This document shows positions 5,801 to 37,976 of a stretch of 40,750 nt of DNA, in pieces. The notes under the pieces are model-generated. The model had not been told where the DNA came from. It did not search any database and saw only the letters and a list, made by a program, of their open reading frames with translations. How positions within the stretch are numbered: position 1 is the first letter of the stretch; each line of letters starts with the position of its first letter. The position numbers and the translations under genes are program-made. The stretch spans positions 1 to 40,750 of the forward strand of contig JBEICT010000002.1 of assembly GCA_040383865.1 (NCBI GenBank). The letters run 5' to 3'. Source of the stretch: Flavobacteriales bacterium (GTDB taxonomy: Bacteria; Bacteroidota; Bacteroidia; Flavobacteriales_F; PHOS-HE28).

Positions 5801-8161
5801 TGCTCCCGGCAATGCCGAACCGAAAGGGGTTCCCTGACAATCGACCGGTGTTCCCGCACATGAGCAATCCAAGCTCCAGGTATCGTTGATGGTAAGCGAG
5901 TTCCCGTCGCTGCATGGTGTGCCAGGCAGTGCTCCTCCACCCGCAACACCAAGGCAGTCAAAAGGGGCACCAACGCATTGGCAGCTGGTGTTCCACGTGT
6001 CGTTGCCCGTGTTGGCATTGCCATCATTGCATGGCGAGCCGGGCACCGCCGCCCCACCCGTAACGCCCAGGCAATCGACCAATTGGCCAGTGCAGGCACA
6101 ATTGGTACCGACCACATCATTGATCGTGTTCGGGTTACCGTCGTTACAGGCCGACCCTGGCTCCGGATTCCCACAACCGCATGCACCTGGTGCGGTCTTG
6201 TTCGGATCCGTTGGGCACCCATCCGCCACGTTGCATACACCATCCCCATCGGAGTCCGGCAAAGGCGTGAACACGCAGGACCCACCCGCACATCCATCCG
6301 AGGTACAAGGGTTGTTATCGTTGCACGGGAGCGGCACACCCACACATTGGCACGAGGCGTTCCACGTATCGTTCACCGTGCAGGCGTTGCCATCGTTGCA
6401 AGCCGTACCGGGTGCTGCCGGGCCGCTTGGTACACCCAGGCAATCCGTGGCCACAGGGGTGATCACGACCTGACCGAAGGCACCCAGGCTGAGATTGAAG
6501 TAACTGCCGCTGTACGAGACCTGTAATTTCAGGGCACGCACCATGTAGCGGACCGTGCCGGAAAGGCCGCTGGTGTTGTCCGTGAAGCTGGTGCCGGTCA
6601 CCGCTGTGCTCGTGCGTCGTTCCCAGGTCTGGGTCGCCGTGTTGAAGCGATAGACATGATAACCGGCCAGTCCTGCCTCAGGTGATGCGGTCCAGGTCAC
6701 CGTTGTGTTCTGGCCTGTAGGACTGGTGGCCTGCACGTTCGTAGCAGGGGCCACCACGTGCATGCGCAACGTGGGATCGCCGAGCAACGAAACGTGGATA
6801 CGACCTGCCTGCGGGTTGGCCGGCTCATAATGGCCGTTGCCATTGTTCTGGGTAAGCCTGGTGGAATAGCCGATGGTCTCCCCCAGCCCCATGTGGTGGA
6901 AGAACCAGTTCGGATAACCCGCCCAGAAATTGGCCAGGATGGTGCCTGAACCCAGGGCGGCACGGAGGAAGTTGTCCTGGAAATCCCAATCGCCGAAATA
7001 GCTACCCAGCAGTACCGTAAAGATGCCGCGTGTATAGGTCGATGCGAATTGCGCTGTGCTGCCGACCCCGTTGGCATTCGTCCACCATCCACCACCACAA
7101 CCGTAACTCCAGAGGTGGCTCTGTGTGGACATGGATGTGAAGTAGTCCCCGGCCAACACATTGTTCGGATGCACCAAAGGGCCGAAACCCCGCCAACCGT
7201 TCTGTGAGAACGCATCGGCCATGCCGGTGAAATTGTCATCGATCACAGCCCTATCCTGTGCGGTGATCTGCTTCACCTTCCACTGATGCAGCTTGGTCAG
7301 GTAATTGGCCGTCAAGGTGGTCTCGTCCTGGCTGAACGCCGGCATGTTGAAGAAATCAACGCGGCCTACCGCCAGTTCCACAGAGCTGGGGATCACCGAC
7401 TGATCGAACTTGCCGTCACCGGGCACATTGTGGTTCCTGGTCCATTGGGCCGTGGCACTGTTCACCGAATTATCGGTCCAGGTCCCGTTCATTTCGCCGT
7501 AGTACACATCGGCCACCCATGCACCGTAGTGCTCACCATGGCCATCGGGAGCCAGGTTGCCCGACATAGGCACGGGAACATGGCCAACGATGAATACCGA
7601 GTTCACCTTGGTGGGGTCGGCGTTGTACGCGTTCACTACCAACGCCTTCACACTGGTCACAGGCGCCGTTCGGCTGACGTCATGACGTATTACGCGCCAA
7701 CCGTCGCCTTCCAGATCGCTTTGCAGCTGCGCCAATTGGGTGGCAAGCGAGGTCGTGAACGTATTGTCCACCAACAGCACCATCTTGCCTCGGTCCTCCA
7801 CCATGTCCACTGCGATCCCGGCGTTCACATAACCTTGACCACTCCCCAGGTTCGAGGTGGTACGCACCACCTTGTACTCATAGGAAGTATTGACGCTGAC
7901 GGAATTGTCCACGAACTGAGCGGCCGTTGAGGTCGCCGTACCGATCGCTGTTCCCCAGCTCGTTCCGCCCTTCAACTTTCTGAAAATGGTGAACCCCGTC
8001 GTGTTGGCGTGCGGTGCCCAATTCAGGGTGATCCGCGCAGGGTTGGACTGCACGGTGGCCCAGAGCTGAACGGACCGGTTCTGGCCCAAGGTCTGTGCCA
8101 TGGCAAATGCCGCCAGCAGCCAGAACAGCAGTGTGGCAATGGGCCTTGAATGTTTAAGCAT
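2807..8161 (-). CDS. Giant secreted cysteine-rich repeat protein with T9SS (Por) C-terminal sorting domain
   Basis: The track ORF 2807..8167 starts at TTG; the first ATG (plus 8159-8161) gives signal peptide MLKHSRPIATLLFWLLAAFAMAQ. The head (about 6446-8161) is FN3-like + ~450-aa globular domain + FN3-like. Two blocks of DC.GV.GG.A.PG..CDDG...T.ND.W...C.C.G repeats follow. Asp-rich TSP3-like motifs sit at about 3041-3325 (DLDGDQVLDCNDNC, DVDGVGDPCDNC, DDDDDGVGNACD). The C-terminus IPNPSSGVVRL...IDLSGLPQGTYSITL...VSVVRL (about 2810-3040) fits the T9SS sorting-domain pattern. Confidence 0.9.
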   Translation of the reverse strand: MLKHSRPIATLLFWLLAAFAMAQTLGQNRSVQLWATVQSNPARITLNWAPHANTTGFTIFRKLKGGTSWGTAIGTATSTAAQFVDNSVSVNTSYEYKVVRTTSNLGSGQGYVNAGIAVDMVEDRGKMVLLVDNTFTTSLATQLAQLQSDLEGDGWRVIRHDVSRTAPVTSVKALVVNAYNADPTKVNSVFIVGHVPVPMSGNLAPDGHGEHYGAWVADVYYGEMNGTWTDNSVNSATAQWTRNHNVPGDGKFDQSVIPSSVELAVGRVDFFNMPAFSQDETTLTANYLTKLHQWKVKQITAQDRAVIDDNFTGMADAFSQNGWRGFGPLVHPNNVLAGDYFTSMSTQSHLWSYGCGGGWWTNANGVGSTAQFASTYTRGIFTVLLGSYFGDWDFQDNFLRAALGSGTILANFWAGYPNWFFHHMGLGETIGYSTRLTQNNGNGHYEPANPQAGRIHVSLLGDPTLRMHVVAPATNVQATSPTGQNTTVTWTASPEAGLAGYHVYRFNTATQTWERRTSTAVTGTSFTDNTSGLSGTVRYMVRALKLQVSYSGSYFNLSLGAFGQVVITPVATDCLGVPSGPAAPGTACNDGNACTVNDTWNASCQCVGVPLPCNDNNPCTSDGCAGGSCVFTPLPDSDGDGVCNVADGCPTDPNKTAPGACGCGNPEPGSACNDGNPNTINDVVGTNCACTGQLVDCLGVTGGAAVPGSPCNDGNANTGNDTWNTSCQCVGAPFDCLGVAGGGALPGTPCSDGNSLTINDTWSLDCSCAGTPVDCQGTPFGSALPGAPCNDGDPNTGNDTWNNSCQCVGLPIDCNGVPGGGAVVDLCGVCGGNNDCVVASTCYTLTSVGGNPDGEEAENGNVYNNTGSLDLVFDGEPTPWRGNQVVALRFGNIAVPRDAPILQAYVQFTARGTGNLSPSSLNVALQASDNAQPLGFAPFDLSSRATTSSVPWAPPSWTVTNANGVAQRTSDISTAIGEVVNRPGWSPGNAMVVLIEGEGRRSAWSWDQSQARAARLCITHAAPPMDCLGVVGGGALPGTPCDDGDATTGNDQWTINCTCAGQPIDCAGVPGGSAGPGSPCDDNDPLTGNDTYQQDCSCTGLPLDCLGIPGGPALVGTSCDDGLALTVNDVWTSDCSCEGVPTNDDCLGVEFGGALPGTPCDDGDPLTGNDLWTAACTCIGLPLDCDGVPGGTALPGAPCDDGDPQTGNDSWGVDCACAGVPVDCAGVPDGASWPGSPCNDGDPTTGADTWQADCTCVGLPLDCIGVPGGAALPGSPCDDGLSNTVNDIWGSDCACSGEVVDCLGVIGGTALPGTACDDGNSATGNDVWSVDCTCAGLPLDCAGAAGGAAVPGSPCDDGNASTGNDTWGSDCICSGLPIDCVGLPGGGALPGAPCDDGNAATGNDQWTANCICAGLPLDCLGVPGGAALPGTPCDDGDPATGNDLWELTCGCAGQVIDCLGVSGGTALPGAACNDGDPGTGNDQWTTDCVCAGVPIDCLGAVGGTALPGTPCDDSNASTDNDQWTASCTCAGQVIDCAGVPGGQALPGTPCDDGNASTGNDLWMGNCQCAGEPLDCAGVPGGLALPGTPCDDGNANTVNDTWNSSCICSGLPMDCAGVVNGAAFIDDCGTCAGGTTGITPNPDLDGDQVLDCNDNCVSVPNTAQSDFDVDGVGDPCDNCPWVFNADQADDDDDGVGNACDDVGIHDRSLDVQVRAIPNPSSGVVRLVPDIREARMVTIHDPRGALVDRRAYSPVIDLSGLPQGTYSITLIDVDGRSIARVSVVRL
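3326..5086 (-). repeat. 15 consecutive in-frame 117-bp units (39-aa four-Cys repeat; one unit is 41 aa)
   Basis: Counted by hand from the translation: 14 x 39 aa + 1 x 41 aa = 587 aa = 1761 nt, which matches the coordinates exactly. Cys sits at unit positions 2, 16, 32 and 34 throughout. Confidence 0.9.
5636..6445 (-). repeat. First block of the same four-Cys repeat (4 full units, an 83-aa variant segment, and a terminal DC.GV.GG.AVVD.CGVCGG variant)
   Basis: Hand count: 40 + 83 + 39 + 39 + 39 + 30 aa = 270 aa = 810 nt. The first unit starts at the GAT codon (plus 6443-6445). Confidence 0.8.
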
Positions 8162-8175
8162 GTGCAAAAGGATCG

Positions 8176-8183
8176 CAAATATA
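8176..8183 (-). promoter_or_regulatory. Candidate Bacteroidota-type -7 promoter box TATATTTG for the giant adhesin gene
   Basis: The minus strand reads GGGGGGGGGTTATATTTGCGATCCTTTTGCACATG. TATATTTG fits the TAnnTTTG consensus and ends 14 nt before the ATG. No convincing -33 TTTG was seen. Confidence 0.4.
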
Positions 8184-8184
8184 A

Positions 8185-8193
8185 CCCCCCCCC
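8185..8193. repeat. C9 (G9 on minus strand) homopolymer, running into the 12-nt palindrome CCCGCGCGCGGG (8191-8202)
   Basis: Read directly: ataa ccccccccc gcgcgcggg. It lies immediately upstream (minus-strand sense) of the candidate -7 box. Confidence 0.9.
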
Positions 8194-8453
8194 GCGCGCG
8201 GGAGACCGACCTGCTGGAACATGGGACGGCGACAGATCGTTCGATAAGAGCGACGTATTACCATTCATGATCGACCACCCTTTCTACGTGGTTACCTTCG
8301 CAACGGTTCCGATGAAGCAAACCTTCGACCGGACGATGGCGTAGAAATGGCGGTTGAATAGCCCGGAGCGTGTACGCACCCTCTCAGTTCCCGACCCGGA
8401 AAAGGTTGAAGAACAGGGATTTGGCTTTATGACCTGATCGACTAAAAAAGGAC

Positions 8454-11400
8454 ATGAACAAGGATCGGATGGGATCGATGAACCTATTGGAGCTGATCGC
8501 AGCTTCTTTCAAGCACAGACCTACCGCAACGGCCATTATCTCCGAGGAAAAAGTCCTCACTTATGCCAGGCTCCATGAACACATGGACCGGATGGCCAGC
8601 GTCTTGGCCAAGCATCTGGTGTCGTCCGGTAGTACGGTCGGTCTCTGCCTTGACCGCTCTCCCGAGCTCATCATTGCCGTGCTAGGCATTGTGAAGACCG
8701 GCTCTGCCTATGTGCCCATCGACCCCACGTACCCAGCCGAACGCATCGCAGGGATGCTAGAGGACGCCAAGCCGCCGGTGGTCATCACCAACAAGGTGAA
8801 CCAACACCTCTTCAATGGCACGCAGGCCAAAGTGATCCTCATCGAAGACATTGACCTGGACAACGGTCCGAACTTCGAAGGCGCCTGCCCCGCCACGGCG
8901 GAGGAGCTGCTCTACGTGCTCTTCACCAGCGGCAGCACCGGCCGACCCAAGGGCGTGGCCATGCACCATGCGCCGCTCACCAACCTGATCCAGTGGCAGC
9001 TGCGCACCAGCGTGTGCCGAGAGGCAGATCGCACGCTCCAATTCGCGCCCATCAGCTTCGATGTGAGCTTCCAGGAGATCTTCACCACGTTCGCCCAGGG
9101 CGGCACGCTGGTATTGATCACCGATGAGGACCGCCTGAACAGCACCCAGCTCCTGCGGAAGATCATTGCCCAGAAGATCAACCGGATCATCGTGCCCTTC
9201 GTGGCGCTGCAATACCTCGCGGAAGCGGTGGAGCGCACCGGCGAAGTGCCGTCCACGCTGAAGGAGGTCTTCACCAGCGGCGAGCAGCTGAAGATCACAC
9301 CTGCCATCGCAAACCTCTTTAAGCAACTCCCCGGCTGCCGCTTCTGCAACCAGTACGGACCCACCGAAGGGCACGTGGTGAGCGAGCTCGAGTTGAAAGG
9401 CGATCCGAGCACGTGGCCTGCCTTGCCCAACATCGGAAGCGCCATCGATCACGTGAAGCTTTACGTGCTCGATGAGCAAATGAAGCCGGTGCCGCAAGGT
9501 GAAGAAGGCGAACTCTACCTCGGTGGTGCCTGCGTGGCCAAGGGCTACATCGGTCGTGACGACCTCACTGCCGAGCGTTTCCTCGTGGATCCGTTCATTC
9601 CCGGTGGTCGGCTGTACAAGACCGGCGACCGCGCCGCGGAATTGTCCAACGGCGAGATCGACTACAAGGGCCGCATCGATGGCCAGGTGAAAGTGCGCGG
9701 ATACCGGATCGAGCTGGGCGAAGTGGAAGTGGCCATGGAGAAGCATCCCGCGGTGGAGCAAGCCGTGGCCAACGTGCGCGAAGACCGTCCAGGATTGAAG
9801 CGCCTGATCGGCTACTACGTCGCGAAAAGCGAACTGAGCACCAACGAGCTGCGCAAGCACCTCGCCTCCCTCCTGCCCGACTACATGCAGCCTTCCGCCT
9901 TTGTGGCCGTGAAGGAACTACCGCGCACGCCGAGCGGCAAGATCGATCGCAAGGCACTGCCTGCGCCGGATGTGAAACGACCAGACCTGGATGTGGCCTA
10001 CGCCGCTCCTTCGACCGGCGCTCAAAAGACCCTCGCCAATGTGTGGGCCGATCTGCTCGGCATCGACCGTGTGGGCATCGACGACAACTTCTTCGATCTA
10101 GGGGGCAACTCGCTACTGAGCATCCAAGCAGTGGCACAGTTGGAAGGCCACGGCCTGAAGCTGCCGATCGTGAAGCTCTATCAGCACCCGACCGTACGCG
10201 CTTGTGCCGCATACCTGGAAGGAGATGCAGGCGCCATCGCTCCATCGGAAATGGCCAAGGCTCGCAAGACCGCCACAGGTGGTTCCAAAAAGGGTGACGT
10301 CGCCATCATCGGCATGAGCGGTCGTTTCCCGGGTGCGGAGAATGTGGAGCAGCTGTGGAAGAACCTGCTCGACAAAAAGAACAGCATCAGCACATGGACC
10401 GCGGACGAGCTCGACCCGAGCATCCCTGCGGAGCTGCGCAACGACCCCGACTATGTGAAGGCCCGCGGTGTGATCACCGATGCGGACAAGTTCGACCATG
10501 CCTTCTTCGGCGTGAACCCGAAAGTGGCCGCGTTGATGGATCCGCAGCAACGCGTGTTCCTGGAAACGGCCTGGGCCGCCTTGGAGGATGCCGCGTACGA
10601 TCCCGCACAGTTCGCTGGGCTCATCGGTGTCTATGCCGGCATGGGCAACAACACCTACTTCACACGCAACGTCATCGGTCATCCTGAGCTGATCGAGCAG
10701 GTCGGCGACTTCGCGGTGATGACCGCCAACGAGAAGGACTACATCGCCACACGCCTCGCCTTCGAGTTCGACCTTCGTGGTCCGGCGTTAAGCATCCATA
10801 CCGCGTGCAGTACCTCGTTGGTGGCGATCGCACAAGCGTTCAAGGCGCTGTGCGATGGGGAATGCGACATGGCGCTGGCCGGTGGCATCGCGCTCACCGT
10901 TCCCTTCAACAGCGGCATCGTGTACAACGAAGGTGGCATGTACAGCCCCGACGGCAGCACGCGCACCTTCGACGCCAATGGTAAAGGCACGAGCTTCAGC
11001 GATGGTACAGGCATCATCGTACTGAAACGTCTCGAAGATGCCATCCGTGACAACGACCAGATCTACGCCACCATCAAAGGCGCCGCGCTGAACAACGACG
11101 GCAGCGACAAAGCGAGCTTCACCGCACCCAGCGTGCGTGGCCAGGCGGAGGTGATCGCCATGGCACAGGCCGATGCGGGTGTGAGCCCGAACGAGATCAC
11201 CTACGTGGAGACGCACGGCACCGCCACCCCGCTCGGTGATCCGATCGAGGTGGAGGCACTGACGCTCGCCTTCGGCGGCAAGACCAATGGCCACCACTGC
11301 GTGATCGGCTCCATCAAGAGCAACATCGGACACTTGACCCCGGCCGCTGGTGCAGCGGGAGTGATCAAGACCGCGCTCGCCCTTCGGGAGGAAGTGATCC

Positions 11401-14400
11401 CTTCCAACGTTGGTTTCGAAACGCCGAACCCGGCCATCGACTTCGCCAATTCACCTTTCCGCGTGGCGAACGAGAACATCGCTTGGCCGCGCACCGGAAC
11501 TCCGCGCATCGCAGGCGTTTCCTCCTTCGGTGTGGGCGGAACGAACGCGCATGTGATCCTCGGGGAGCCGCCAGTGGCCAAGGCTTCGAGCGCTTCACGT
11601 AGCAAACAGCTCTTCCTGCTCAGCGCGAAGAGCAAGACGAGCCTCGATGCCATGACGGACAACCTCCGCAACTGGCTCGCAACGCATCCGAAGTCGTCCC
11701 TTGCCGATGCGGCCTACACGCTGCAAGTCGGACGTCGACACTTCAAGCACCGCCGATTGATCGTGGGTGGAAGTCATGGCGAGATGATGGAAGCCATCGC
11801 CAACAAGGACGCCGCAGCGATCGGTACACGCGAGCTGCATGAGGCCGCACCTGGGGTGGTGTTCATGTTCCCCGGACAAGGTTCGCAGTACGTGAACATG
11901 GGTCGGGATCTCTGCGAGTGCGAACCCGTCTTCAAGCAACACTTCGATCAGTGCTGTGACCTGTTCAGCAAGGAATTCGGGACTTCACTGCGCGACATCA
12001 TCTTCCCGAAAGCAGGTGAAGAAGAGAAGGCCGCCGAACAACTGAAACAGACCATCTACACACAGGCCTCCTTGTTCACGATGCACTACAGCCTCGCCAA
12101 GCTGTGGATGCATTGGGGCATCACGCCGGACGCGATGATGGGCCACAGCATCGGTGAGTTCGCTGCCGCCTGCCTCGCCGGTGTGTTCTCCCTGGAGGAC
12201 GCCGTGAAACTGGTGGCCAACCGCGGCCGCATGATGCAGGACCTGCCCGGCGGCAGCATGCTCAGCGTGCGCGCGGCGGAAGCGGATGTGGTCAAGAAGT
12301 TGCCCGCCGGATGCAGCATCGCCGCGAACAACGGTCCGCAATTGTGCGTGGCCAGCGGTCCGCACGAGGCGATCGCGAAGCTGCAGGCCGAGTTGGAGAA
12401 GGACGGCATCACCTGCAAGCTGTTGGTGACCAGCCACGCCTTCCACAGCCCCATGATGGACGCCATCGTGGAGCCCTATCGCAAGTTGGTGGAAAGCGTG
12501 AAGCTGAGCGCGCCGCGCATCCCCATCGTGAGCACGGTGACCGCCGAATGGCTGAAGGACGACGAGGCCACTTCGCCGAAGTATTGGAGCGATCACCTGC
12601 GAGCCACCGTGCGTTTCGCGCAGGCCGTGAAATTCGCGTGGAGCGATGCTGACCGCGTGATGCTGGAAGTTGGTCCGCGTACCACCGCTACAACGCTGGC
12701 CCGCCAGCAGAGCACGGACAACAAGAAACAAGCAGCGGTGCCCTCGTTGGGCGATTCCGCAGGAAACGGCAATGAGCTGACGCAACTGCTGAAAGCCGTT
12801 GGTGGCCTGTGGCAGACCGGCGTGCTCATCGACTGGAGCAAGTTCTACGAGGCAGAGACGCGTCATCGCATCTCATTGCCCACTTACGCGTTCGAGCGCA
12901 TCCGTCACTGGGTGGATCCCGTGGCGATGGTGGCCGATGGTGGTCGAGCCGTGGCCAGCACAACGATCGAGGCCCCCGTACCGAACAGCGGCGATGCCCT
13001 TCTCACCCCCAAGGAAGCCCTCGTCGCGCAGATCAAGCAGCTGCTGGAAGAGAGCTCCGGTCTGGAACTGGCTGAGGTGAGCAATGAGGAGACCTTCCTG
13101 GAAATGGGCCTCGACTCGCTGTTCCTGACGCAGGTCGCGACCTCGCTCAGCAAGAAGTTCGGCGTGAAGATCTCGTTCCGTCAATTGAACGAAGAGCTGC
13201 CCAACCTGGACAAGCTGGCGGACCATATCCTGCCGCATTGGACCAACGCAGGGGCTGTTGCAAGTTCAGGCGCCAAGAGCGACACGGCTGCTGCATCCGC
13301 ACCTGCGATCAATGCCCTCGAGGACGCCCCGGAGCTCAAAAAGGTCTTCGGCGCCCAGGCACGGATCGTGAAGGAGAAGGTGGACGACATGACGCCGCAG
13401 CAACGTGCGTGGTTCGACGCCTTTTTAAAGCGCTACGTGGCCAAGACCGCCAAGAGCAAGGCCTTCACGCAGGAGAACCGCAAGCCAATGGCCGATCCGC
13501 GCGTGGTCACCGGTTTCAAGCCGCAAACGAAGGAACTCATCTACCAGGTCGTGGTGGACAAGAGCAGCGGTTGCCACCTGTGGGACATCGACGGCAACGA
13601 GTACGTGGACATCCTCAGCGGCTTCGGCAGCTCGATGTTCGGCTACATGCCCGATTTCATCAAGGAAGCCTGCCACAAGCAGATCGATACCAGCGTGGAG
13701 ATCGGACCGATGCACCCGCTCGCCGCTGAAGTGTCAAAGCTCTTGTGCGAACTCACCGGTGCCGAACGCGCTGCGGTCTGCAACACGGGGTCTGAGGCAG
13801 TTCTCGGCGCTATGCGGATGGCCCGCACGGTCACCGGCCGTAGCCTGATCATTTCCTTCAGTGGAAGCTACCACGGCATCAACGACGAGGTGATCATCCG
13901 CGGCAGCAAGAGCAAGAAAAGCTACCCTGGCGCGCCCGGCATCATGCCCGAGGCCGTGCAGAACATGCTGGTGCTCGACTACGGTACACCGGAAAGTCTC
14001 GAGATCATCAAGCAACGTTGCCATGAGGCCGCAGCGATCCTGGTGGAACCAGTGCAAAGCCGCCGCATGGAGTTCCGTCCGGTGGACTTCCTCCGCGAGG
14101 TGCGCCGCATCACGCAGGAGAACGGTACCGCGCTGATCTTCGATGAGGTGATCACCGGCTTCCGCACGCACCCCAACGGCACGCAGGCGCTCTTCGGCAT
14201 CCAGGCCGACATCGGCACCTATGGCAAGGTGATCGGTGGCGGCATGCCCGTAGGCGCCATGATCGGCAAGAGCGAATGGATGGACGCCCTCGACGGCGGC
14301 CACTGGCAGTACGGCGACGACAGCGTGCCGCCTGCCGGTGTCACCTACTTTGCCGGCACCTTCGTGCGACACCCGCTGACGCTGGCCGCCATGAAGGCCG

Positions 14401-14927
14401 CGCTGGTGTATATGAAGAACGAAGGCCCCGCCTTGCAGGAGCGCCTCAACACCACCACCGAGGACATGGTGGCGCGCGTGAACGGTCTCTTCGACCAGTA
14501 CCAGCTCCCCTACCGTTGGGTGAACTTCGGCAGCGCGTTCAAGACGAAGTATGACGAGAGCGTCAACTACACCGAGCTCTTCTTCATGCTGATGCGCTAC
14601 CACGGCGTGCATGTGCTGGATTTCCCGCACTTCATCACCACAGCGCATACAACTGCGGACATCGCGTTCATCATCAGCGCGGTGGAGAAGACCTGCAAGG
14701 AGCTGCGCGAAAGCGGCTTCATGCCGGAGCGCACCTACCCCATCCCCGTGGTGAACAGCGTGCTAGGCGGGCATGTGCGAAAGCTGAGCGAGCGTGTGAT
14801 CAGCGCGATGGAGCCACCGGTACCAGGCGCACGCATGGGACGCACGCCGAAAGGCGAGCCCGCATGGTTCGTGCCCGACCCGAATCGGCAGGGCAAATAC
14901 CTCATGGTTGAACTGGACGAGAACTGA
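8454..14927 (+). CDS. Hybrid NRPS-PKS, domain order A-T-KS-AT-ACP-aminotransferase (class III, PLP)
   Basis: A: LYVLFTSGSTGRPKGV, FDVSFQE, NQYGPTE, GRIDGQVKVRGYRIELGEVE, PSGKIDRKAL. T: FFDLGGNSLL (Ser codon 10110). KS: DVAIIGMSGRFPG, HTACSTSLVA (Cys codon 10806), ETHGTATPLGDP, KSNIGHL. AT: FMFPGQGSQY, GHSIGEF (Ser codon 12147), SHAFHS. ACP: LEMGLDSLF (Ser codon 13116). AmT: SGSEAVLGAMRMAR, FDEVITGFR, YGKVIGGGMPVGA (Lys codon 14226). There is no KR/DH/ER between AT and ACP. Alternative in-frame starts lie at 8469 and 8478. Confidence 0.93.
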   Translation: MNKDRMGSMNLLELIAASFKHRPTATAIISEEKVLTYARLHEHMDRMASVLAKHLVSSGSTVGLCLDRSPELIIAVLGIVKTGSAYVPIDPTYPAERIAGMLEDAKPPVVITNKVNQHLFNGTQAKVILIEDIDLDNGPNFEGACPATAEELLYVLFTSGSTGRPKGVAMHHAPLTNLIQWQLRTSVCREADRTLQFAPISFDVSFQEIFTTFAQGGTLVLITDEDRLNSTQLLRKIIAQKINRIIVPFVALQYLAEAVERTGEVPSTLKEVFTSGEQLKITPAIANLFKQLPGCRFCNQYGPTEGHVVSELELKGDPSTWPALPNIGSAIDHVKLYVLDEQMKPVPQGEEGELYLGGACVAKGYIGRDDLTAERFLVDPFIPGGRLYKTGDRAAELSNGEIDYKGRIDGQVKVRGYRIELGEVEVAMEKHPAVEQAVANVREDRPGLKRLIGYYVAKSELSTNELRKHLASLLPDYMQPSAFVAVKELPRTPSGKIDRKALPAPDVKRPDLDVAYAAPSTGAQKTLANVWADLLGIDRVGIDDNFFDLGGNSLLSIQAVAQLEGHGLKLPIVKLYQHPTVRACAAYLEGDAGAIAPSEMAKARKTATGGSKKGDVAIIGMSGRFPGAENVEQLWKNLLDKKNSISTWTADELDPSIPAELRNDPDYVKARGVITDADKFDHAFFGVNPKVAALMDPQQRVFLETAWAALEDAAYDPAQFAGLIGVYAGMGNNTYFTRNVIGHPELIEQVGDFAVMTANEKDYIATRLAFEFDLRGPALSIHTACSTSLVAIAQAFKALCDGECDMALAGGIALTVPFNSGIVYNEGGMYSPDGSTRTFDANGKGTSFSDGTGIIVLKRLEDAIRDNDQIYATIKGAALNNDGSDKASFTAPSVRGQAEVIAMAQADAGVSPNEITYVETHGTATPLGDPIEVEALTLAFGGKTNGHHCVIGSIKSNIGHLTPAAGAAGVIKTALALREEVIPSNVGFETPNPAIDFANSPFRVANENIAWPRTGTPRIAGVSSFGVGGTNAHVILGEPPVAKASSASRSKQLFLLSAKSKTSLDAMTDNLRNWLATHPKSSLADAAYTLQVGRRHFKHRRLIVGGSHGEMMEAIANKDAAAIGTRELHEAAPGVVFMFPGQGSQYVNMGRDLCECEPVFKQHFDQCCDLFSKEFGTSLRDIIFPKAGEEEKAAEQLKQTIYTQASLFTMHYSLAKLWMHWGITPDAMMGHSIGEFAAACLAGVFSLEDAVKLVANRGRMMQDLPGGSMLSVRAAEADVVKKLPAGCSIAANNGPQLCVASGPHEAIAKLQAELEKDGITCKLLVTSHAFHSPMMDAIVEPYRKLVESVKLSAPRIPIVSTVTAEWLKDDEATSPKYWSDHLRATVRFAQAVKFAWSDADRVMLEVGPRTTATTLARQQSTDNKKQAAVPSLGDSAGNGNELTQLLKAVGGLWQTGVLIDWSKFYEAETRHRISLPTYAFERIRHWVDPVAMVADGGRAVASTTIEAPVPNSGDALLTPKEALVAQIKQLLEESSGLELAEVSNEETFLEMGLDSLFLTQVATSLSKKFGVKISFRQLNEELPNLDKLADHILPHWTNAGAVASSGAKSDTAAASAPAINALEDAPELKKVFGAQARIVKEKVDDMTPQQRAWFDAFLKRYVAKTAKSKAFTQENRKPMADPRVVTGFKPQTKELIYQVVVDKSSGCHLWDIDGNEYVDILSGFGSSMFGYMPDFIKEACHKQIDTSVEIGPMHPLAAEVSKLLCELTGAERAAVCNTGSEAVLGAMRMARTVTGRSLIISFSGSYHGINDEVIIRGSKSKKSYPGAPGIMPEAVQNMLVLDYGTPESLEIIKQRCHEAAAILVEPVQSRRMEFRPVDFLREVRRITQENGTALIFDEVITGFRTHPNGTQALFGIQADIGTYGKVIGGGMPVGAMIGKSEWMDALDGGHWQYGDDSVPPAGVTYFAGTFVRHPLTLAAMKAALVYMKNEGPALQERLNTTTEDMVARVNGLFDQYQLPYRWVNFGSAFKTKYDESVNYTELFFMLMRYHGVHVLDFPHFITTAHTTADIAFIISAVEKTCKELRESGFMPERTYPIPVVNSVLGGHVRKLSERVISAMEPPVPGARMGRTPKGEPAWFVPDPNRQGKYLMVELDEN

Positions 14928-14936
14928 GCGAGCAGC

Positions 14937-17900
14937 ATGGAGAAGTTCATCCAAGAACCCCGATTCGTCGCTGTTGACTTCAACCCCTTCATCGGGCCAG
15001 CGATCGAGCGCACCATCCCCACTACGGAAGCACAGCGCGAGGTGCTCACCGCCTCCGAGATGGGCGTGGATGCCAGCTGCGCGTACAACGAGAGCGTATC
15101 CCTGGAACTGAAGGGAGCGCTCGACCAGACCGCACTGGAGCGCGCAATGCACGAACTGGTGAAACGACACGAAGCACTGCGCTCCACGCTCAATGCCAGC
15201 GGCACACGCATGCTGGTGACTGACGAAGTGCGCTTTCATCTGCCCGTCATCGACCTTTCCACGCATAACGAGGTCGAGCTCAGCAAGCAGCTCGATGCCA
15301 TCGCGAGGAAGGACATGACCACGCCCTTCGACCTGCGCCATGGGCCTCTGTTCCGTGCCCAGTTGATCAAGATCGCCAGCGATGCGCACCTGCTACGGCT
15401 ATGCGGCCACCACGTGGTGTGCGACGGCTGGAGCCTTGGCATCATGATGGCCGAGATCAGCGCGCTGTACAATGCATCGAAGAGCGGTGGCATGCCGAAG
15501 CTGCCGGAAGCAAGCACCTTCAGCGAGTACAGCGTCGCCACCATCGACTTCGCGAAAAGCCCCGACCACGCGGTGGTTGAACGTTACTGGCTTGACCTTT
15601 ACAAGGGACCCCTACCCCGCCTCGACCTCCCCACCGACCGTCCACGGCCGAAGCAGAAGACCTACAAGGGCAACCGCCTCGACCTACAGCTCACGCAGGA
15701 CCTGGTGCGCGGCCTGAAGGAAGTGGCCACGCGCAGTGGCGCCAGCTTCGTCACCACCTTGATGACCACCTTCGAGGTGCTACTGCACAAGCTCACCGGA
15801 GACAGCGACATCGTGGTGGGCCTGCCCGCCGCCGGCCAGAGCGATCTGGGCATGAAGCACCTGGTGGGGCATTGCGTGAACCTGCTCGCTCTTCGCAGCC
15901 GCATCGATGAGGAACAATCCTTCATCGAGCATCTGAAGGCACGTCGCACCGGTGTGCTCGATGCCTTCGACAACCAGAAGTACACCTTCGGAACGCTCCT
16001 TCGGAAGCTGAACGTGCCACGCGAGCCAGGCCGCATCCCGCTGTGCCCCGTGGTGTTCAACATCGACATGAACATGGACGATGGTGTGGGCTTCGATGGC
16101 CTTCAGCATCGCTTCATATCGAACCCACGAGCCTTTGAGAACTTCGAGCTGTTCCTCAACGCCACGGGCAACGAAGGGCACCTCACGCTGGAATGGAGCT
16201 ACAACACCGACCTATTCGAAGAGGCCACCGTACGCGGCTGGATGGATCAACTGATCGCGCTCATCCAACGCGTCATCGCTCATCCCAACGCACCCATTGT
16301 TGAACTCATCGGCGATGGGCCCTTGGGAGCGGAGAAGGTGTCGGTACCGACCGAATGGCAAGGGAAGGCCGTGACCTATCCAAAGAGCAAAGGCGTGAAC
16401 ACCTTGTTCGATGAGGTGGTGGCGCAATACCCCGACCGGACCGCTCTCGTGCAGCGAGACCAGCAGTTGACCTATGCCCAACTGCAGGAACGTGTCCTGG
16501 CACTGACCGCATTGCTCAAGGAGAACGGCGTAAAGCCGGGCGACCTGGTAGCGCTCTGCAGCGAACGGAATTTCCGATTGGTGGAAGCACAGCTGGCCAT
16601 CCTCCGTGCCGGTGCCGCCTTCGTGCCCATCGACCACACCTACCCGGCCGAAAGGATCCACTTGTTGTTCGAGGACACGCGCGCCGAACTGCTGCTCACC
16701 GAGAAGGCCCTTGAGAAAGTGCTGCCACCTCATGGGGCACGTGTGATCCTGTTGGACGGCAACGAGATCCCGAAGTCAAGGCTCGCTGACCATGTCCCCA
16801 TTGAAGGCCCGGAAACAGCGGCCTATATCATGTACACCAGCGGCAGCACGGGTAGGCCGAAAGGTGTCGTGGTACCGCACCGTGGCATCGTCAGGCTGGT
16901 GCGCGACCAGAACTACGCACCCTTCGGACCGGACGCGGTCATCACCCAACTGAGCAACGTATCCTTCGATGCCAGCACCTTCGAGCTCTGGGGTGCGTTG
17001 TTGAACGGTGGACGACTGGTATTGCAGCCGCAGTCGAAACCGACGTTGGCAGAAGTGACCGAGACCATCGAGCGTTACGGCGTGAACATCATGTTCATCA
17101 CCACCGGACTGTTCAACGTACTGGTGGATGAACACGTGGACCGTTTAAAGGGCTTAAAGTGTATTCTGACCGGCGGTGAAGTGATGAGCCTGCCGCACAT
17201 CCGCAAGGCACTGAGCGTGTTGGGCCCCGGCGTGTTGAACAACATCTACGGACCTACCGAGAACACCACGTTCAGTTGCTTCCATCCGATCAATTCGGCA
17301 GAGGACATTGGCAAGCAAGTACCCATCGGAAAGCCGATCAACAACACCTTCCTCTATGTCCTCGACGAGCAGCGCAAACCGGTCCCGGTCGGTGCGAAGG
17401 GCGAGCTTTACTGCGGTGGCGACGGCGTGGCATTGGGCTATTGGGAACGTCCCGACCTCAATGAAGAGCGCTTCCTGCACGACCCCTTCAGGGGTGGTGA
17501 CGCACGCATGTACCGGAGCGGTGACCTGGTGAAATGGCTGCCCAACGGCACGCTGGAGTTCCTGGGCCGTGCCGATGACCAGGTGAAGGTCCGTGGTTTC
17601 CGTATCGAGCTGGGCGAGATCGAGAACGCCATCAGTGCGTTCACCGGTGTGCGCGACCGGTTGGTCATGGTGCGCCGTGACATGCCCGGTGATCAGCAAC
17701 TGGTGGCCTACGTCGTTCCGGAAGGGTTCGACCCAACGACAGACCCTGCACAGAGCGAACACTTCCTGGACGGGGTGCGCCAGCATCTGGCATCGGCACT
17801 ACCCGCCTTCATGATGCCTTCGTTCTTCGTGGCCCTTTCATCGTTCCCACTGAACCCGAACGGCAAAGTGGACAAGAAGCTGCTTCCAAAGCCCGAGCTA

Positions 17901-18902
17901 CGCAGTGCCCACATGCGCGCCCAGTATGTTGCTCCGCGCAACACCGAGGAGGTCGGACTTGCCGAGATCTGGTCCAAGGCGCTCGGCGTGGCTGAGGTCG
18001 GCATCCATGATGATTTCTTCGACCTTGGCGGTCATTCCATCATGGGCATCCAGATGCTCGCCCACATCGAGCAGCGCTTCGAGAAGGCCCTGCCGTTGAA
18101 AGCCCTCTTCGAAGCACCCACCATCGCGCAGTTCGCTGCGTTGCTTCGTGGCGACACCACGGACAGGAATTGGAAGAACCTTTCGGCCATTCGGCCAGCA
18201 GGTTCGGGCATCCCCCTGTTCTGCGTACATGGCGATGAGGCCAGCCACTCCCTGCCCAAGTACCTCGACCCCGACACCCCGTTCTATGCCTTCTTCCACC
18301 AAGGTGAGGATGGCAAGGAGATCCGCTATACGTCCGTGGAATCGATCGCGAAGCACTTCATCTCTGAACTGAAGCAAGCACGGCCAGCGGGGCCTTACCT
18401 GCTCTGCGGATATTCGTTCGGTGGCATTGTGGCCTACGAAATGGCGCAGCAGCTTATCGCCATGGGCGACGAGGTGCCATTGGTGGTGGTTTTCGACACC
18501 TACGCACCGGCCATGCACGGCAAAGCGATCGAAAGCGACCTGAAGTTCTACGACCCACTGAAGAAGCGCATCATGCGTGGCCTGGTATCGCAGTATTTGC
18601 GCAATGGCGGCACGGTGCCCACACGTCTGCGGAACTTCCACATCATCGACACCTACGACCGAGCCGCGATGGCTTATGCTCCGAAGCCCTTCAAAGGCCG
18701 GTTGGCCGTGTTCAAGGCCGAACATTCGTGGGGGCCGAACGAGATGGGTTGGAACGAACTGGCCGCGAACGATGTCGATATACATGTGCTTCCCGGCGAC
18801 CACTACACCATGATCGAAGAGCCGCAGGTACAGGCCCTGGCCCGCGAACTTTCGGAATGCATCCGGAGCACCGTGGGGAAGGCTGAAACGGTTCACCACT
18901 GA
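14937..18902 (+). CDS. NRPS termination module, C-A-T-TE
   Basis: C: GHHVVCDGWS (His codon 15408). A: AAYIMYTSGSTGRPKGV, FDASTFE, NIYGPTE, GRADDQVKVRGFRIELGEIE, PNGKVDKKLL. T: FFDLGGHSIM (Ser codon 18036). TE: LFCVHGDE, GYSFGG (Ser codon 18414), LPGDHY. Starts 9 nt after the upstream stop. Confidence 0.93.
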   Translation: MEKFIQEPRFVAVDFNPFIGPAIERTIPTTEAQREVLTASEMGVDASCAYNESVSLELKGALDQTALERAMHELVKRHEALRSTLNASGTRMLVTDEVRFHLPVIDLSTHNEVELSKQLDAIARKDMTTPFDLRHGPLFRAQLIKIASDAHLLRLCGHHVVCDGWSLGIMMAEISALYNASKSGGMPKLPEASTFSEYSVATIDFAKSPDHAVVERYWLDLYKGPLPRLDLPTDRPRPKQKTYKGNRLDLQLTQDLVRGLKEVATRSGASFVTTLMTTFEVLLHKLTGDSDIVVGLPAAGQSDLGMKHLVGHCVNLLALRSRIDEEQSFIEHLKARRTGVLDAFDNQKYTFGTLLRKLNVPREPGRIPLCPVVFNIDMNMDDGVGFDGLQHRFISNPRAFENFELFLNATGNEGHLTLEWSYNTDLFEEATVRGWMDQLIALIQRVIAHPNAPIVELIGDGPLGAEKVSVPTEWQGKAVTYPKSKGVNTLFDEVVAQYPDRTALVQRDQQLTYAQLQERVLALTALLKENGVKPGDLVALCSERNFRLVEAQLAILRAGAAFVPIDHTYPAERIHLLFEDTRAELLLTEKALEKVLPPHGARVILLDGNEIPKSRLADHVPIEGPETAAYIMYTSGSTGRPKGVVVPHRGIVRLVRDQNYAPFGPDAVITQLSNVSFDASTFELWGALLNGGRLVLQPQSKPTLAEVTETIERYGVNIMFITTGLFNVLVDEHVDRLKGLKCILTGGEVMSLPHIRKALSVLGPGVLNNIYGPTENTTFSCFHPINSAEDIGKQVPIGKPINNTFLYVLDEQRKPVPVGAKGELYCGGDGVALGYWERPDLNEERFLHDPFRGGDARMYRSGDLVKWLPNGTLEFLGRADDQVKVRGFRIELGEIENAISAFTGVRDRLVMVRRDMPGDQQLVAYVVPEGFDPTTDPAQSEHFLDGVRQHLASALPAFMMPSFFVALSSFPLNPNGKVDKKLLPKPELRSAHMRAQYVAPRNTEEVGLAEIWSKALGVAEVGIHDDFFDLGGHSIMGIQMLAHIEQRFEKALPLKALFEAPTIAQFAALLRGDTTDRNWKNLSAIRPAGSGIPLFCVHGDEASHSLPKYLDPDTPFYAFFHQGEDGKEIRYTSVESIAKHFISELKQARPAGPYLLCGYSFGGIVAYEMAQQLIAMGDEVPLVVVFDTYAPAMHGKAIESDLKFYDPLKKRIMRGLVSQYLRNGGTVPTRLRNFHIIDTYDRAAMAYAPKPFKGRLAVFKAEHSWGPNEMGWNELAANDVDIHVLPGDHYTMIEEPQVQALARELSECIRSTVGKAETVHH

Positions 18903-18992
18903 AAGGTCCGACCATGATGGAACGGCGTTCAGCGAAGGCCATATCCCTTCCGTCGACACCAGGTTGACCGTTTCTGAACACCCGGATAGCTT

Positions 18993-19751
18993 GTGGCCCG
19001 ATCCATTCGAATGCCACACCGGACCAGACCCCGCTGGAAGAACCTCAGACCATTGCGTCCAGAGGGTACCGGCCCTGCGTTGGTCTGTGTGCATGGCGAT
19101 GAAGCGAACGAACTGCTTCCGAAACACCTGGACCATGAGCGTCCGTTCTACGCCTTCATTCATCAAGGAAAGGACCGCAAAAAGCTTCATCTCCAACAAG
19201 TGGAGGACATTGCGGCCCACTATCTCCAGGAGCTTTTGGCGGCCAGGCCGCACGGGGAATACGTTCTGTGCGGGTATTCCTTCGGGGGCATCATTGCCTT
19301 TGAAATGGCACAGCAACTGCGGTCCATGGGACGCGAAGTGCCGCTCTTGGCGCTTATCGATGCCTATGCGCCCGACCTCCATGTACAGGCATTGGAAAGT
19401 GACCATAGCTGGCGCTCGAACCTGAAGCATGGACTGATGCTGAAGGTAACGGCACCCTTCATCCGTTTGAACCGCCCCATGCCGGCCAAGCTCCATCACC
19501 ATCATATCATCGGCACTTACGACAAGGCCATCCGCTCCTATAAGCCACGGCCTTACGATGGTCAGGTGATGATCCTGAAGGCAAATGACGCCTGGGGACC
19601 CGATGACCTGGGTTGGACCATACACTCCAAACAACTACTGGACCTTCAGCAGGTACCAGGGGACCATTATTCCGTGATCAAGGAGCCGCACGTCGCCGAA
19701 CTGGCGTTCCACATCGAGGAACGCCTGGCTCGAATTGCGACCACCTGTTAG
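18993..19751 (+). CDS. Free-standing thioesterase (alpha/beta hydrolase), paralog of the TE domain of the preceding NRPS
   Basis: LVCVHGDE, CGYSFGGIIAFEMAQQL and VPGDHYSVIKEP run colinear with the upstream TE domain from RWKNL onward. The start is GTG at 18993 or ATG at 19011. Confidence 0.85.
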   Translation: MARSIRMPHRTRPRWKNLRPLRPEGTGPALVCVHGDEANELLPKHLDHERPFYAFIHQGKDRKKLHLQQVEDIAAHYLQELLAARPHGEYVLCGYSFGGIIAFEMAQQLRSMGREVPLLALIDAYAPDLHVQALESDHSWRSNLKHGLMLKVTAPFIRLNRPMPAKLHHHHIIGTYDKAIRSYKPRPYDGQVMILKANDAWGPDDLGWTIHSKQLLDLQQVPGDHYSVIKEPHVAELAFHIEERLARIATTC

Positions 19752-19771
19752 TTATCCTTACTTCGCAGCGC

Positions 19772-20527
19772 ATGGAAGGGCGGCGCTTGACCTTATACTG
19801 TAGTGATACCGAAGTTGCACGCTGGTCCTCCCCGGCAGCGGTCCATGCAAGCCCGGAACACGTGCAATTGTGGTTCGCCGAACTGAGCGACCACCTGGCC
19901 CAACTGGACCAACTGCGTGAACTGCTCGACAAGGAGGAGGTGGCCCGTGCGGAACGGTTCCGGTTCGAACATGACCGCCAGCGCTTCATCATTGGCCATG
20001 GACTTCTCCGGCAAGTGCTTGCACAGCGTTTGAACGCACGACCAAGTGATATCCGCTTCTCCAGGGGGGCTCATGGCAAACCGTACATCCCGGAGGCCGG
20101 GTTCCACTTCAATTTCAGCGACACCAAGGATGCCATCCTCATCGCCGTTTGCCATGGAGCCGAGTTGGGCGTGGATGTGGAGACCATGGCGCGCACCGTG
20201 GACCACATGGCCGTTGGCGAACACTATTTCACACCGGAAGAGGTGGCGGACATCCATGATACTTCAGACCCCAAGCGACGCTTCCTGGAACTTTGGACGC
20301 GAAAAGAAGCGGTGCTGAAGGCCAGCGGGGTGGGCATCATGGACGACCTGAAAGTGCTGCGTGTGAACACGCCTGAACAGATCGTGGAACCGGCCCATGA
20401 GCAGTTCCGGCGCATGGCCGCAGACCAATACCACCTCCGCACCTGGAGCCTGGGCTCCGACCACATCATCAGCCTGGCCACGTCAATATCAAGACCAGAG
20501 GTCGCATTCCATCCATTGTCCTATTGA
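19772..20527 (+). CDS. Sfp-type 4'-phosphopantetheinyl transferase
   Basis: GKPYI, FNFSDT, GVDVE, WTRKEAVLKA. The track ORF starts at 19613 and overlaps the TE gene; ATG 19772 (MEGRRLTLY) lies 20 nt after the TE stop. Confidence 0.85.
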   Translation: MEGRRLTLYCSDTEVARWSSPAAVHASPEHVQLWFAELSDHLAQLDQLRELLDKEEVARAERFRFEHDRQRFIIGHGLLRQVLAQRLNARPSDIRFSRGAHGKPYIPEAGFHFNFSDTKDAILIAVCHGAELGVDVETMARTVDHMAVGEHYFTPEEVADIHDTSDPKRRFLELWTRKEAVLKASGVGIMDDLKVLRVNTPEQIVEPAHEQFRRMAADQYHLRTWSLGSDHIISLATSISRPEVAFHPLSY

Positions 20528-22072: not shown

Positions 22073-22825
22073 ATGAAGAACCTGATGAATTACATCTTCC
22101 CGCTGGCCTTGATCCTGATCGGTCTGATCCTGCTCGTAGTGGGCGGCATGCAAGGCCAGAACACCTGGGTGATGCTGGGTGCCGGACTGGCCCTGTTCGC
22201 CGGTGTGGTGGCACTACTTCTCCAAATGGGCGTCATCAGCCGCTCGGCCGGGCTCGCCATTGGCCTGCTATCCGCTGTGATCGCCGTGTTCGTGGGCTAC
22301 CGCAACTATCGCTCGATCGCCGAAGTGCTGGAGAACGAGGAGAAGCGCAAGAAGAACGACAGCCAGGTCATCCAGGCCTTGAAGGATATCCGCACGGCCG
22401 AGATCGGCTACCGCCAGGCCACCGGCGCCTTCACCGGCAACCTGGACGTGTTGCGCGACTTCGTGAAGAACGGCAGCATCCCCATGGTACGTTCCATCGG
22501 CCAGGTGCCCGATTCGCTGACCGAAAAGGACGCTCTTGCCTTGAAGATCATCGTGCGCGACACGATCATGGCACCGGCGCTGGACTCGTTGTTCCGCACC
22601 GCCAGTGCGATGGAAGGTCGCGTGTATCCCTTCGACCCGGAGAAACTGACGTTGGCCCCCACCTCAGGCAAGCCGTTCATCTTACGGAACGGTGCGATCA
22701 GTTCCAGTGGCCGCAACGTGCCCGTGTTCATTGCGAAGGACCCCCAGCCCTTCCCCGGCACGGACACGCTGATGGTGGGCAGCATGGAAAAGGCCTCCAC
22801 GGCGGGGAACTGGAAAGGGGAGTAA
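22073..22825 (+). CDS. Hypothetical membrane protein (three N-terminal hydrophobic helices)
   Basis: LALILIGLILLVVGG, VMLGAGLALFAGVVALLL and GLAIGLLSAVIAVFVGY, followed by a soluble domain. No motif recognised. Confidence 0.6.
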   Translation: MKNLMNYIFPLALILIGLILLVVGGMQGQNTWVMLGAGLALFAGVVALLLQMGVISRSAGLAIGLLSAVIAVFVGYRNYRSIAEVLENEEKRKKNDSQVIQALKDIRTAEIGYRQATGAFTGNLDVLRDFVKNGSIPMVRSIGQVPDSLTEKDALALKIIVRDTIMAPALDSLFRTASAMEGRVYPFDPEKLTLAPTSGKPFILRNGAISSSGRNVPVFIAKDPQPFPGTDTLMVGSMEKASTAGNWKGE

Positions 22826-22829
22826 TTCC

Positions 22830-37116: not shown

Positions 37117-37182
37117 ACCCAACACCACCTCATCATGCTCATCCCCACCCTGCTTCTGTCAATGCTCATCCCTGAGGCACCC

Positions 37183-37812: not shown

Positions 37813-37825
37813 AATACATGGAACC

Positions 37826-37960
37826 GTGAATGAACGGGAATGAACATGAATAGCTGCCGGACCTCGGCCCCAACCTCGACGGCCATTACCGAACCTCAGC
37901 GTTCTGGCGGCAGTAGGTGCGAACCCGAATTTCATTCCCGTTCATTCCTGTCCATTCCCG
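37826..37960. repeat. Inverted arrays of tandem decamers (CGTGAATGAA CGGGAATGAA CATGAAT ... TTCATTCCCG TTCATTCCTG TCCATTCCCG) giving a perfect 17-bp inverted repeat
   Basis: gaatgaacgggaatgaa at 37828-37844 is the exact reverse complement of ttcattcccgttcattc at 37931-37947. An inner CTGCCG/CGGCAG pair lies at about 37853 and 37905. Confidence 0.8.
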
Positions 37961-37976
37961 GTTGAATTCAAGTACT

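Follow-up and report, generated by a model that had tools for sequence, protein, structure and literature searches.

A two-protein hybrid assembly line of Flavobacteriales with a predicted proline-like starter and a predicted vicinal diamino acid unit

What is made by an assembly line that appears to start from an amino acid, to extend it once with malonate, and then to pass the chain to an aminotransferase, with no ketoreductase in the module? The question is raised by gene 1 (8454..14927, + strand; 2157 aa), a hybrid nonribosomal peptide synthetase-polyketide synthase (NRPS-PKS) encoded in a 40,750-nt stretch of DNA from a Flavobacteriales bacterium (assembly GCA_040383865.1, contig JBEICT010000002.1, positions 1 to 40,750; G+C ~61%), in the following called the window. 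Its open reading frame (ORF) and Pfam matches give the order adenylation (A), peptidyl carrier (T), ketosynthase (KS), acyltransferase (AT), acyl carrier protein (ACP), and aminotransferase (AmT), and its stop lies 9 nt from the start of gene 2 (14937..18902, +; 1321 aa), an NRPS with condensation (C), A, T, and thioesterase (TE) domains. A sequence-only reading had proposed that an aminoacyl starter, one malonate, and a transamination would give a vicinal 3,4-diaminoacyl unit, which the next protein would couple to a second amino acid. This diamine scheme is the best-supported reading of the locus, and it can be sharpened to a proline-like starter, a MycA-type AmT, and Ile or Val as the probable second residue; as an overall explanation, the combination of proline-like starter, β-amination, and Ile/Val coupling is given a probability of roughly 0.6.

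The domain matches of gene 1, with Pfam E-values from 1e-30 to 1e-71, and its motif matches are far beyond chance, and all its domains lie on the + strand. The loading domain A1 (8508..9968; AMP-binding, aa 19-365, E 9e-71), of the amino-acid type, carries the stretch FDVSFQE with the Asp in place (aa 202-208), and is followed by the peptidyl carrier T1 (10029..10217; PP-binding, aa 526-588) with Ser552 in GGNSL. In the KS (10296..11417; aa 615-988, E 2.5e-67 and 1.8e-40 for the N- and C-terminal ketoacyl-synt models) the Cys-His-His set is intact within TACSTS, HGTA, and NIGH. The AT (11859..12749; Acyl_transf_1, aa 1136-1432, E 7e-54) displays GHSIGE (aa 1230-1235) and SHAFHS (aa 1327-1332), the latter containing the HAFH motif that indicates a malonyl substrate, which is established PKS knowledge and also stated in PMC11356792; on this motif the AT is assigned to the malonyl type. 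The ACP (13041..13253), recognized as a second PP-binding copy and by its motif, has Ser1554 in GLDSL. Between the end of the AT at residue 1432 and the start of the ACP near residue 1530 there is a gap of ~95-100 aa, close to the 90 aa estimated earlier, and no ketoreductase (KR), dehydratase (DH), or enoylreductase (ER) family was matched by Pfam, either there or anywhere else in gene 1. A statine-type β-hydroxy output was rejected for the lack of a KR in gene 1. The class III AmT (13464..14729; Aminotran_3, aa 1698-2057, E 3e-48) is fused directly after the ACP of this KR-free KS-AT-ACP module. A likely alternative start of gene 1 is M9 at 8478, which gives a match to the 2149-aa database entry P0001.

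The aminotransferase can be placed more closely than by the designation class III. A search of residues 1671-2157 against solved structures returned the AMT and ACP-AMT structures of the mycosubtilin synthase MycA (6kfm, 6kfu) as the top two matches, with E 1.5e-119 over 422 residues, whereas the best match to a free glutamate-1-semialdehyde aminomutase (GSAM) reached only 1.6e-48; the identity to the MycA AMT amounts to 47% over 419 aa. Asp1897, within FDEVITGFR, and the pyridoxal phosphate (PLP) lysine Lys1925, within YGKVIGGG (aa 1923-1930), are both intact, the latter motif having been recognized from the sequence beforehand. According to PMC3870968, which cites Aron et al. 2005, the MycA AMT moves an amine from Gln via PLP onto an ACP-bound β-ketothioester, and is the one aminotransferase domain of this group for which amination of β-ketoacyl-ACP has been shown by experiment. 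Because the MycA structures outscore the aminomutases by far, the AmT of the window is assigned as a putative MycA-type β-ketoacyl-ACP aminotransferase; the ACP-AmT-then-C context is shared.

Which starter, then, would reach the KS? The signature codes of A1 and of the second adenylation domain, A2, were obtained by alignment to a GrsA sequence, whose own ten signature positions read DAWTIAAICK, in agreement with the published GrsA code. For A1 the code DVQIFSQVVK results, opening with the D/V/Q that had been mapped by hand; position 278 is I or V, depending on a one-residue alignment choice. D235 and K517 are both present, and because of these two residues A1 is predicted to be an amino-acid adenylation domain and not a fatty-acyl ligase; its whole-domain matches in the PDB are, without exception, NRPS A domains. 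A fatty-acid starter, loaded in the style of MycA, microginin, or puwainaphycin by a fatty acyl-AMP ligase (FAAL), was rejected on the same evidence, and the expectation that the line is primed by an amino acid is borne out at this level.

Evidence for a cyclic imino acid comes from the pocket itself and from relatives. In a PDB search with the pocket region of A1 (185 aa), GrsB1 (8p5o) and TycB1 (9bfd_B), both Pro-activating A domains, came out on top with E 4e-30, followed by matches at 4e-26 and 2e-23. A two-gene homologue in a Flavobacteriaceae metagenome-assembled genome (MAG; locus L075) has the A1 code DVQFIAHVVK, with F or L at position 278 by the same alignment choice; its pocket matches TycB1 and GrsB1 at ~1e-43, with the next match (7e-31) twelve orders of magnitude behind, and the alignment shows D-V-Q, I-T-A, H, and V-V shared with both. 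The two-gene homologue from Pedobacter cryoconitis (L078) has DVQFIAQVVK. Among 71 representatives of the same architecture, described below, the A domains nearest to A1 of the window (44-51% identity) all exhibit DVQ...VVK codes. The canonical Pro code, DVQ(L/F)IAHVVK, agrees with the window code at six of ten positions, and the window code is unchanged in 62 related Flavobacteriales loci. Because of the pocket matches, the Pro-type codes of the distant homologues, and the DVQ...VVK codes of the nearest relatives, A1 is placed with the proline domains, and it can be proposed with moderate confidence that proline, or a cyclic compound closely related to it, serves as the starter. With a Pro-like starter the 4-amino group would be the pyrrolidine nitrogen, such that the predicted unit, 3-amino-3-(pyrrolidin-2-yl)propanoyl, would remain a 3,4-diamino acid, a vicinal diamine with one ring nitrogen.

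Gene 2 (Pfam Condensation, AMP-binding, PP-binding, Thioesterase) provides what such a unit would need next. Its motifs are intact in all four domains: HHVVCDG in the C domain, FDASTFE in A2, as expected from the D/A/F assignment made earlier, GGHSI in T2, and GYSFGG in the TE. In the PDB, the C domain is closest to TycC6, bacitracin synthase, and the teixobactin synthetases, i.e., to ordinary elongation C domains, and the TE shows a generic likeness to NRPS/PKS thioesterases. The A2 code from the GrsA alignment is DAFFLGITFK, which is Ile/Val-like by comparison with published codes; the second residue is thus likely to be Ile or Val. The A2 region (16407-17867) switches its code between close genomes, while the A1 code stays invariant in the 62 loci mentioned above. 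In these loci DALWLGGTFK (Val-type) was found 34 times, DAFLVGAVIK six times, and DAFFLGITFK four times, besides several others, and several of the codes other than the Val-type one are aliphatic in type; a Gly code occurs in Pedobacter and Larkinella, and a Thr code in L075. In Larkinella bovis (L079) the Gly-type A domain of the second protein (16506-21887) contains an inserted methyltransferase. This N-methyltransferase insert would lead to an N-methylglycine residue, and the starter of that line should differ, because its loading A code, DPEHIAKI-K, is quite different.

The route proposed here, including the substrates, the timing of amination on the ACP, the structure and stereochemistry of the product, and the mode of release, is what we infer from sequence. 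A1 would adenylate L-proline, or a cyclic imino acid closely related to it, and load it onto T1; the KS would take over the prolyl group and condense it with malonyl-ACP, provided by the malonyl-specific AT, to 3-oxo-3-(pyrrolidin-2-yl)propanoyl-S-ACP. With no reductive step, the PLP-dependent AmT would aminate the β-keto group, the probable amine donor being an amino acid, for instance Gln, to yield the vicinal 3,4-diamine 3-amino-3-(pyrrolidin-2-yl)propanoyl-S-ACP. The C domain of gene 2 would join this diamino acyl group to the Ile or Val carried by T2, and the TE would release the pseudo-dipeptide, either by hydrolysis (predicted [M+H]+ 272.197 for Ile, 258.181 for Val) or by lactamisation via the β-amine or the ring nitrogen (254.186 and 240.171). 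As far as domain order, intact motifs, the MycA-like AmT, and the downstream C domain can tell, the vicinal 3,4-diamino unit deduced by the sequence-only reading holds.

Several points weigh against this reading. Four of the ten positions of the A1 code (278, 299, 301, 322) deviate from the canonical Pro code, and Ser301 is restricted to the clade of the window among the codes extracted; a substituted proline, an analogue of another ring size, or a different compound altogether could be the substrate. We know of no characterised precedent for a free prolyl starter passed to a KS; in the known cases the proline ring is first oxidised or its nitrogen acylated. Spontaneous lactamisation of a γ-amino thioester is possible and could divert intermediates, and the choice of the TE between hydrolysis and cyclisation is not readable from sequence. 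For no member of the family were metabolite or biochemical data found in the literature, most subscription-journal papers having been outside reach.

The departures in the pocket, among which Ser301 and Gln322 are polar, would suit a line of the same logic in which A1 loads a non-cyclic or other α-amino acid, giving a 3,4-diamino acid with an open chain ('aminodeoxystatine' type); starters do switch in the family, the same module type being found with Val, Thr, Ser, and other codes. On the other hand, the pocket region is still nearest to GrsB1 and TycB1, D-V-Q (235/236/239) and V-V (330/331) are shared with the Pro domains, and the family members nearest by A-domain identity are all Pro-like in code, so that a non-cyclic or otherwise different starter is considered unlikely for the window. 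A further alternative follows from the lactamisation just mentioned: the pyrrolidine nitrogen might attack the ACP thioester, releasing 1-aminopyrrolizidin-3-one after amination or pyrrolizidine-1,3-dione before it, with gene 2 acting on or alongside the heterocycle instead of elongating a linear chain. The case for such an early exit is purely chemical, in that five-membered lactams form readily from γ-amino thioesters, and the cluster proteins scanned include no device for protecting the nitrogen (a starter C domain, for example, or an acyltransferase). The architecture speaks against it: the ACP-AmT-then-C order is that of MycA, whose C domain takes the β-aminoacyl group, several relatives fuse the whole line A-T-KS-AT-ACP-AmT-C-A-T-TE, gene 2 is a full module with an intact HHxxxDG, and the two genes stay together from Flavobacteriales as far as Pedobacter and Larkinella; an early exit thus appears distinctly improbable.

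A β-keto or tetramate-type product would be expected if the AmT were inactive or acted on a free substrate. Its PLP lysine and Asp are intact, its identity of 47% to the MycA AMT extends across the whole domain, it is covalently held between the ACP and the C-domain partner, and few parts of the protein are better conserved than the AmT and the ACP-AmT linker (clade medians 90% and 92%); this alternative is given hardly any weight. The proline-primed, β-aminated pseudo-dipeptide remains the preferred explanation, and the conservation of the locus bears on it further.

A scan with one genome per species yielded 79 loci, nearly all from Flavobacteriales MAGs of activated sludge and freshwater, several of which look, by isolate names, like MAGs of the Danish wastewater-plant type. 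More than 120 clusters of full-length gene 1 homologues with 78-92% identity were found in Flavobacteriales MAGs, and the cluster occupies one genomic neighbourhood throughout the clade. Whole-gene and neighbour identities to the window were taken from tblastn and domain medians were determined separately, while figures from the third-codon analysis are used for gene 1 only. Across the clade, gene 1 as a whole is 78-92% identical to the window, gene 2 47-81%, the type II thioesterase of the cluster 41-52%, and its phosphopantetheinyl transferase 41-56%; among the neighbours, CoaD reaches 67-85%, RsmD 54-83%, and the helicase 61-77%. The domain medians are 82, 88, 90, 91, 81, and 90% for A1, T1, KS, AT, ACP, and AmT of gene 1, and 67, 55, 57, and 53% for C, A2, T2, and TE of gene 2. 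In a comparison of loci L001-L077 with the window, gene 1 is tighter than the syntenic housekeeping genes CoaD and RsmD, and far tighter than gene 2, the thioesterase, and the transferase. For gene 1, identity at third codon positions falls to 53-65%, compared with 79-91% for the protein. Because these positions have diverged, the conservation of gene 1 reflects strong purifying selection, and recent horizontal transfer as its source was rejected. This is a strong argument, as far as sequence can tell, that the protein predicted to form the diamine, AmT included, works and matters to the host organisms, and core-genome status and unusually strong conservation in this uncultured clade of wastewater and freshwater suggest a part in ecology or physiology. 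In a study of activated-sludge MAGs, NRPS-PKS clusters were found mostly in Flavobacteriales, and none of the clusters of that study grouped with MIBiG entries (PMC9765116).

In this context a tentative proposal, which we would not yet favour over its opposite, is that the cluster and its relatives make undescribed small pseudo-dipeptides of a 'β-amino statine-like' kind, whose basis would be a vicinal diamine (in the present case pyrrolidinyl-β-alanine, joined to Val, Ile, or Leu), and that in this clade the compound is a core-genome metabolite with a physiological role, e.g., a metal-binding diamine-carboxylate ligand or a peptidase inhibitor. A core metabolite would explain that the diamine-forming protein is held tighter than housekeeping neighbours while the second residue drifts.

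How far does the module type extend beyond this clade? When the ACP-AmT part was searched against 1.84 billion cluster representatives at 50% identity, 2764 clusters matched at E <= 1e-30, of which the best 150 were analysed. Exactly A-T-KS-AT-ACP-AmT was present in 46 of these 150 representatives, others displaying the fused A-T-KS-AT-ACP-AmT-C-A-T-TE line or extra modules. In 71 of the 150 the protein starts with an amino-acid A domain, and D235 is found in all 71; about half of their codes are Pro-like, and among the remainder there are Val codes (about ten), Thr and Ser codes, and several without assignment. Source names, where given, are generic, the named Bacteroidota hosts being Spirosoma, Chitinophagaceae, Pedobacter, and Spongiivirga. 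Val-primed proteins of the same architecture (P0141, P0149, P0157) were encountered in the Proteobacteria Marilutibacter maris, Lautropia, and Burkholderiaceae, and by the same logic Val-primed versions should produce open-chain 3,4-diamino-5-methylhexanoyl units. The conserved core of the distant loci consists of the two genes, which the phosphopantetheinyl transferase joins in Pedobacter, where it comes after gene 2, and in L075. A PhyH gene (22679-23476) lies beside the synthetase genes of a Pro-code family member in locus L080, and two Cupin_8 genes (7053-9612) lie beside a Pro-code synthetase in L081, where the second NRPS has two modules. The hydroxylase genes of iron/2-oxoglutarate type in these two loci, together with the two-module NRPS of L081, suggest hydroxylated and longer variants of the product.

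Back in the window, gene 2 is followed by a stand-alone type II thioesterase (18993..19751, +; Pfam Thioesterase, E 2e-22), syntenic in related loci, and by a 4'-phosphopantetheinyl transferase (PPTase) of the Sfp/HetI type (19613..20527, +; Pfam ACPS and AASDHPPT_N), which matches the NCBIfam HetI-like model with E 9e-37, under the curated cut-off. The longest PPTase ORF overlaps the end of the thioesterase gene by ~140 nt (19613-19751). Because of this overlap, and because the domain match begins only at aa 97 and the Pedobacter counterpart comprises 240 aa, the true start of the PPTase is probably further downstream than that of the listed ORF. The biosynthetic locus is thus a set of four genes spanning ~12 kb, a self-contained two-protein NRPS-PKS-NRPS line with its own PPTase and an editing thioesterase. 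Scans of the cluster proteins and flanking ORFs revealed no tailoring, transport, or regulatory genes near the cluster, and an Rfam scan of the window gave no match, hence no known riboswitch or other RNA upstream. With ~12 kb, four genes, no tailoring, and its own PPTase, the cluster is practical for heterologous expression. The flanks, including everything further downstream, are occupied by housekeeping or unrelated genes: a RecD-like helicase, DUF3822, RsmD, CoaD, a thioredoxin-like protein, NUDIX, a phosphoribosyltransferase, an ATP-binding cassette (ABC) exporter at a distance of ~9 kb from the cluster, GidB, Tgt, LptF/G, and ars genes.

Upstream of gene 1, a predicted secreted protein of 1786 aa (2807-8167, - strand) contains a run of cysteine-rich repeats, in which PGxxC[DN]D[GNS] occurs 18 times, mostly with a period of 39 aa; Tandem Repeats Finder detected nothing in its gene at the DNA level. 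Its C-terminal ~80 aa resemble a Bacteroidota sorting domain of the type IX secretion system (T9SS), a likeness that no family model confirmed, and its homologues are syntenic and only 42-69% identical. Four small ORFs (113-203 aa; 686-2911, +) had no Pfam match, nor did the two of them also scanned against NCBIfam find any; those at 1226-1837 and 1991-2482 are syntenic across the clade with 28-50% identity. Towards the other end, an arsenic resistance set (36190-39017) comprises an arsenite methyltransferase (NCBIfam, E 3e-106) and an ACR3 arsenite efflux transporter (E 9e-117), with a weak ArsC-like match at 37135-37812.

Among characterised systems, the closest counterparts of the module are MycA and ItuA of mycosubtilin and iturin, in which a GSAM-like class III AMT likewise comes directly between the ACP of a non-reducing PKS module and a downstream C domain; the C domain downstream of the AmT is present here as HHVVCDG in gene 2. 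MycA, however, employs a long-chain fatty acid starter, activated by an acyl ligase, and delivers a β-amino fatty acid into a cyclic lipopeptide, whereas in the window an amino acid starter would lead to a vicinal diamine in a two-residue molecule, and the AT is present in cis. The fatty-acid or polyketide starter of the characterised AMT modules, loaded by an acyl ligase or FAAL, has no equivalent in A1 of the window. In McyE and NdaF (microcystin, nodularin), the microginin synthetase, and puwainaphycin biosynthesis, KS-AT-ACP-AMT followed by an NRPS C domain β-aminates a polyketide or fatty chain (PMC11356792). The chains of these cyanobacterial modules are derived from polyketide, phenylacetate, or fatty acid, with no α-amino group beside the new amine, unlike that predicted here.

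Modules of the statine, dolaproine, and detoxinine type add one malonate to an aminoacyl or peptidyl thioester, and proline is the starting unit of detoxinine and dolaproine. They carry a KR and yield β-hydroxy units, while the window has an AmT and no KR, and membership in this group was rejected. To our knowledge, vicinal-diamine 'aminodeoxystatine-like' units are known only as synthetic building blocks of protease inhibitors. In biotin biosynthesis (BioF/BioA, from 7-keto-8-aminopelargonate, KAPA, to 7,8-diaminopelargonate), a class III aminotransferase turns an α-amino ketone into a vicinal diamine, but BioF and BioA are free-standing, act on free acids, and use S-adenosylmethionine as amine donor, and the likeness is one of analogy only.

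Carrier-loaded proline, KS condensation with malonyl-ACP, and a subsequent PLP domain are combined in prodigiosin biosynthesis by PigI, PigG, PigJ, and PigH (PMC3870968). In that route the pyrrole depends on a prolyl-carrier dehydrogenase, and the PLP domain belongs to the oxoamine synthases (Aminotran_1_2); neither Aminotran_1_2 nor acyl-CoA-dehydrogenase-like domains were found in the cluster proteins and adjoining ORFs scanned. A prodigiosin-like Pro-KS-PLP route was rejected, the PLP domain of the window being Aminotran_3 and a dehydrogenase being absent from the scanned proteins.

Two earlier in-silico descriptions share the predicted logic and layout of the window, both without a product. 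Pedobacter heparinus C6XWU5 appears as A-CP-KS-AT-CP-PLP1, with 'Nrp-Mal-Gly' as the predicted product, in a survey from 2013 on the PLP domains of assembly lines, and genome mining in 2024 described Pseudanabaena galeata OA858_07105 as C-A(Val)-PCP-KS-AT-ACP-AmT, with a β-aminated Val-malonate predicted in silico (PMC11356792). In our set, the P. cryoconitis homologue (L078) is 47-48% identical to the window, with Gly as second residue. The cyanobacterial line differs from that of the window in opening with a C domain, so that its starter is N-acylated. For a characterised product of the amino-acid-primed family, only such in-silico mentions were found in the literature within reach, from which most subscription-journal papers were missing. 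The sequence-only reading had called the module unusual, which is justified with regard to known chemistry but does not apply to genomes, where the module type is common. The enzyme logic is that known from AMT-containing hybrid modules, of which the amino-acid-primed version is a variant without a characterised product found to date and with a wide occurrence in genomes, in Bacteroidota and, Val-primed, in Proteobacteria; one characterised member would annotate a large family. If the proposed route is correct, it would add to assembly-line chemistry the β-amination of an amino-acid-derived β-ketothioester to vicinal diamines.

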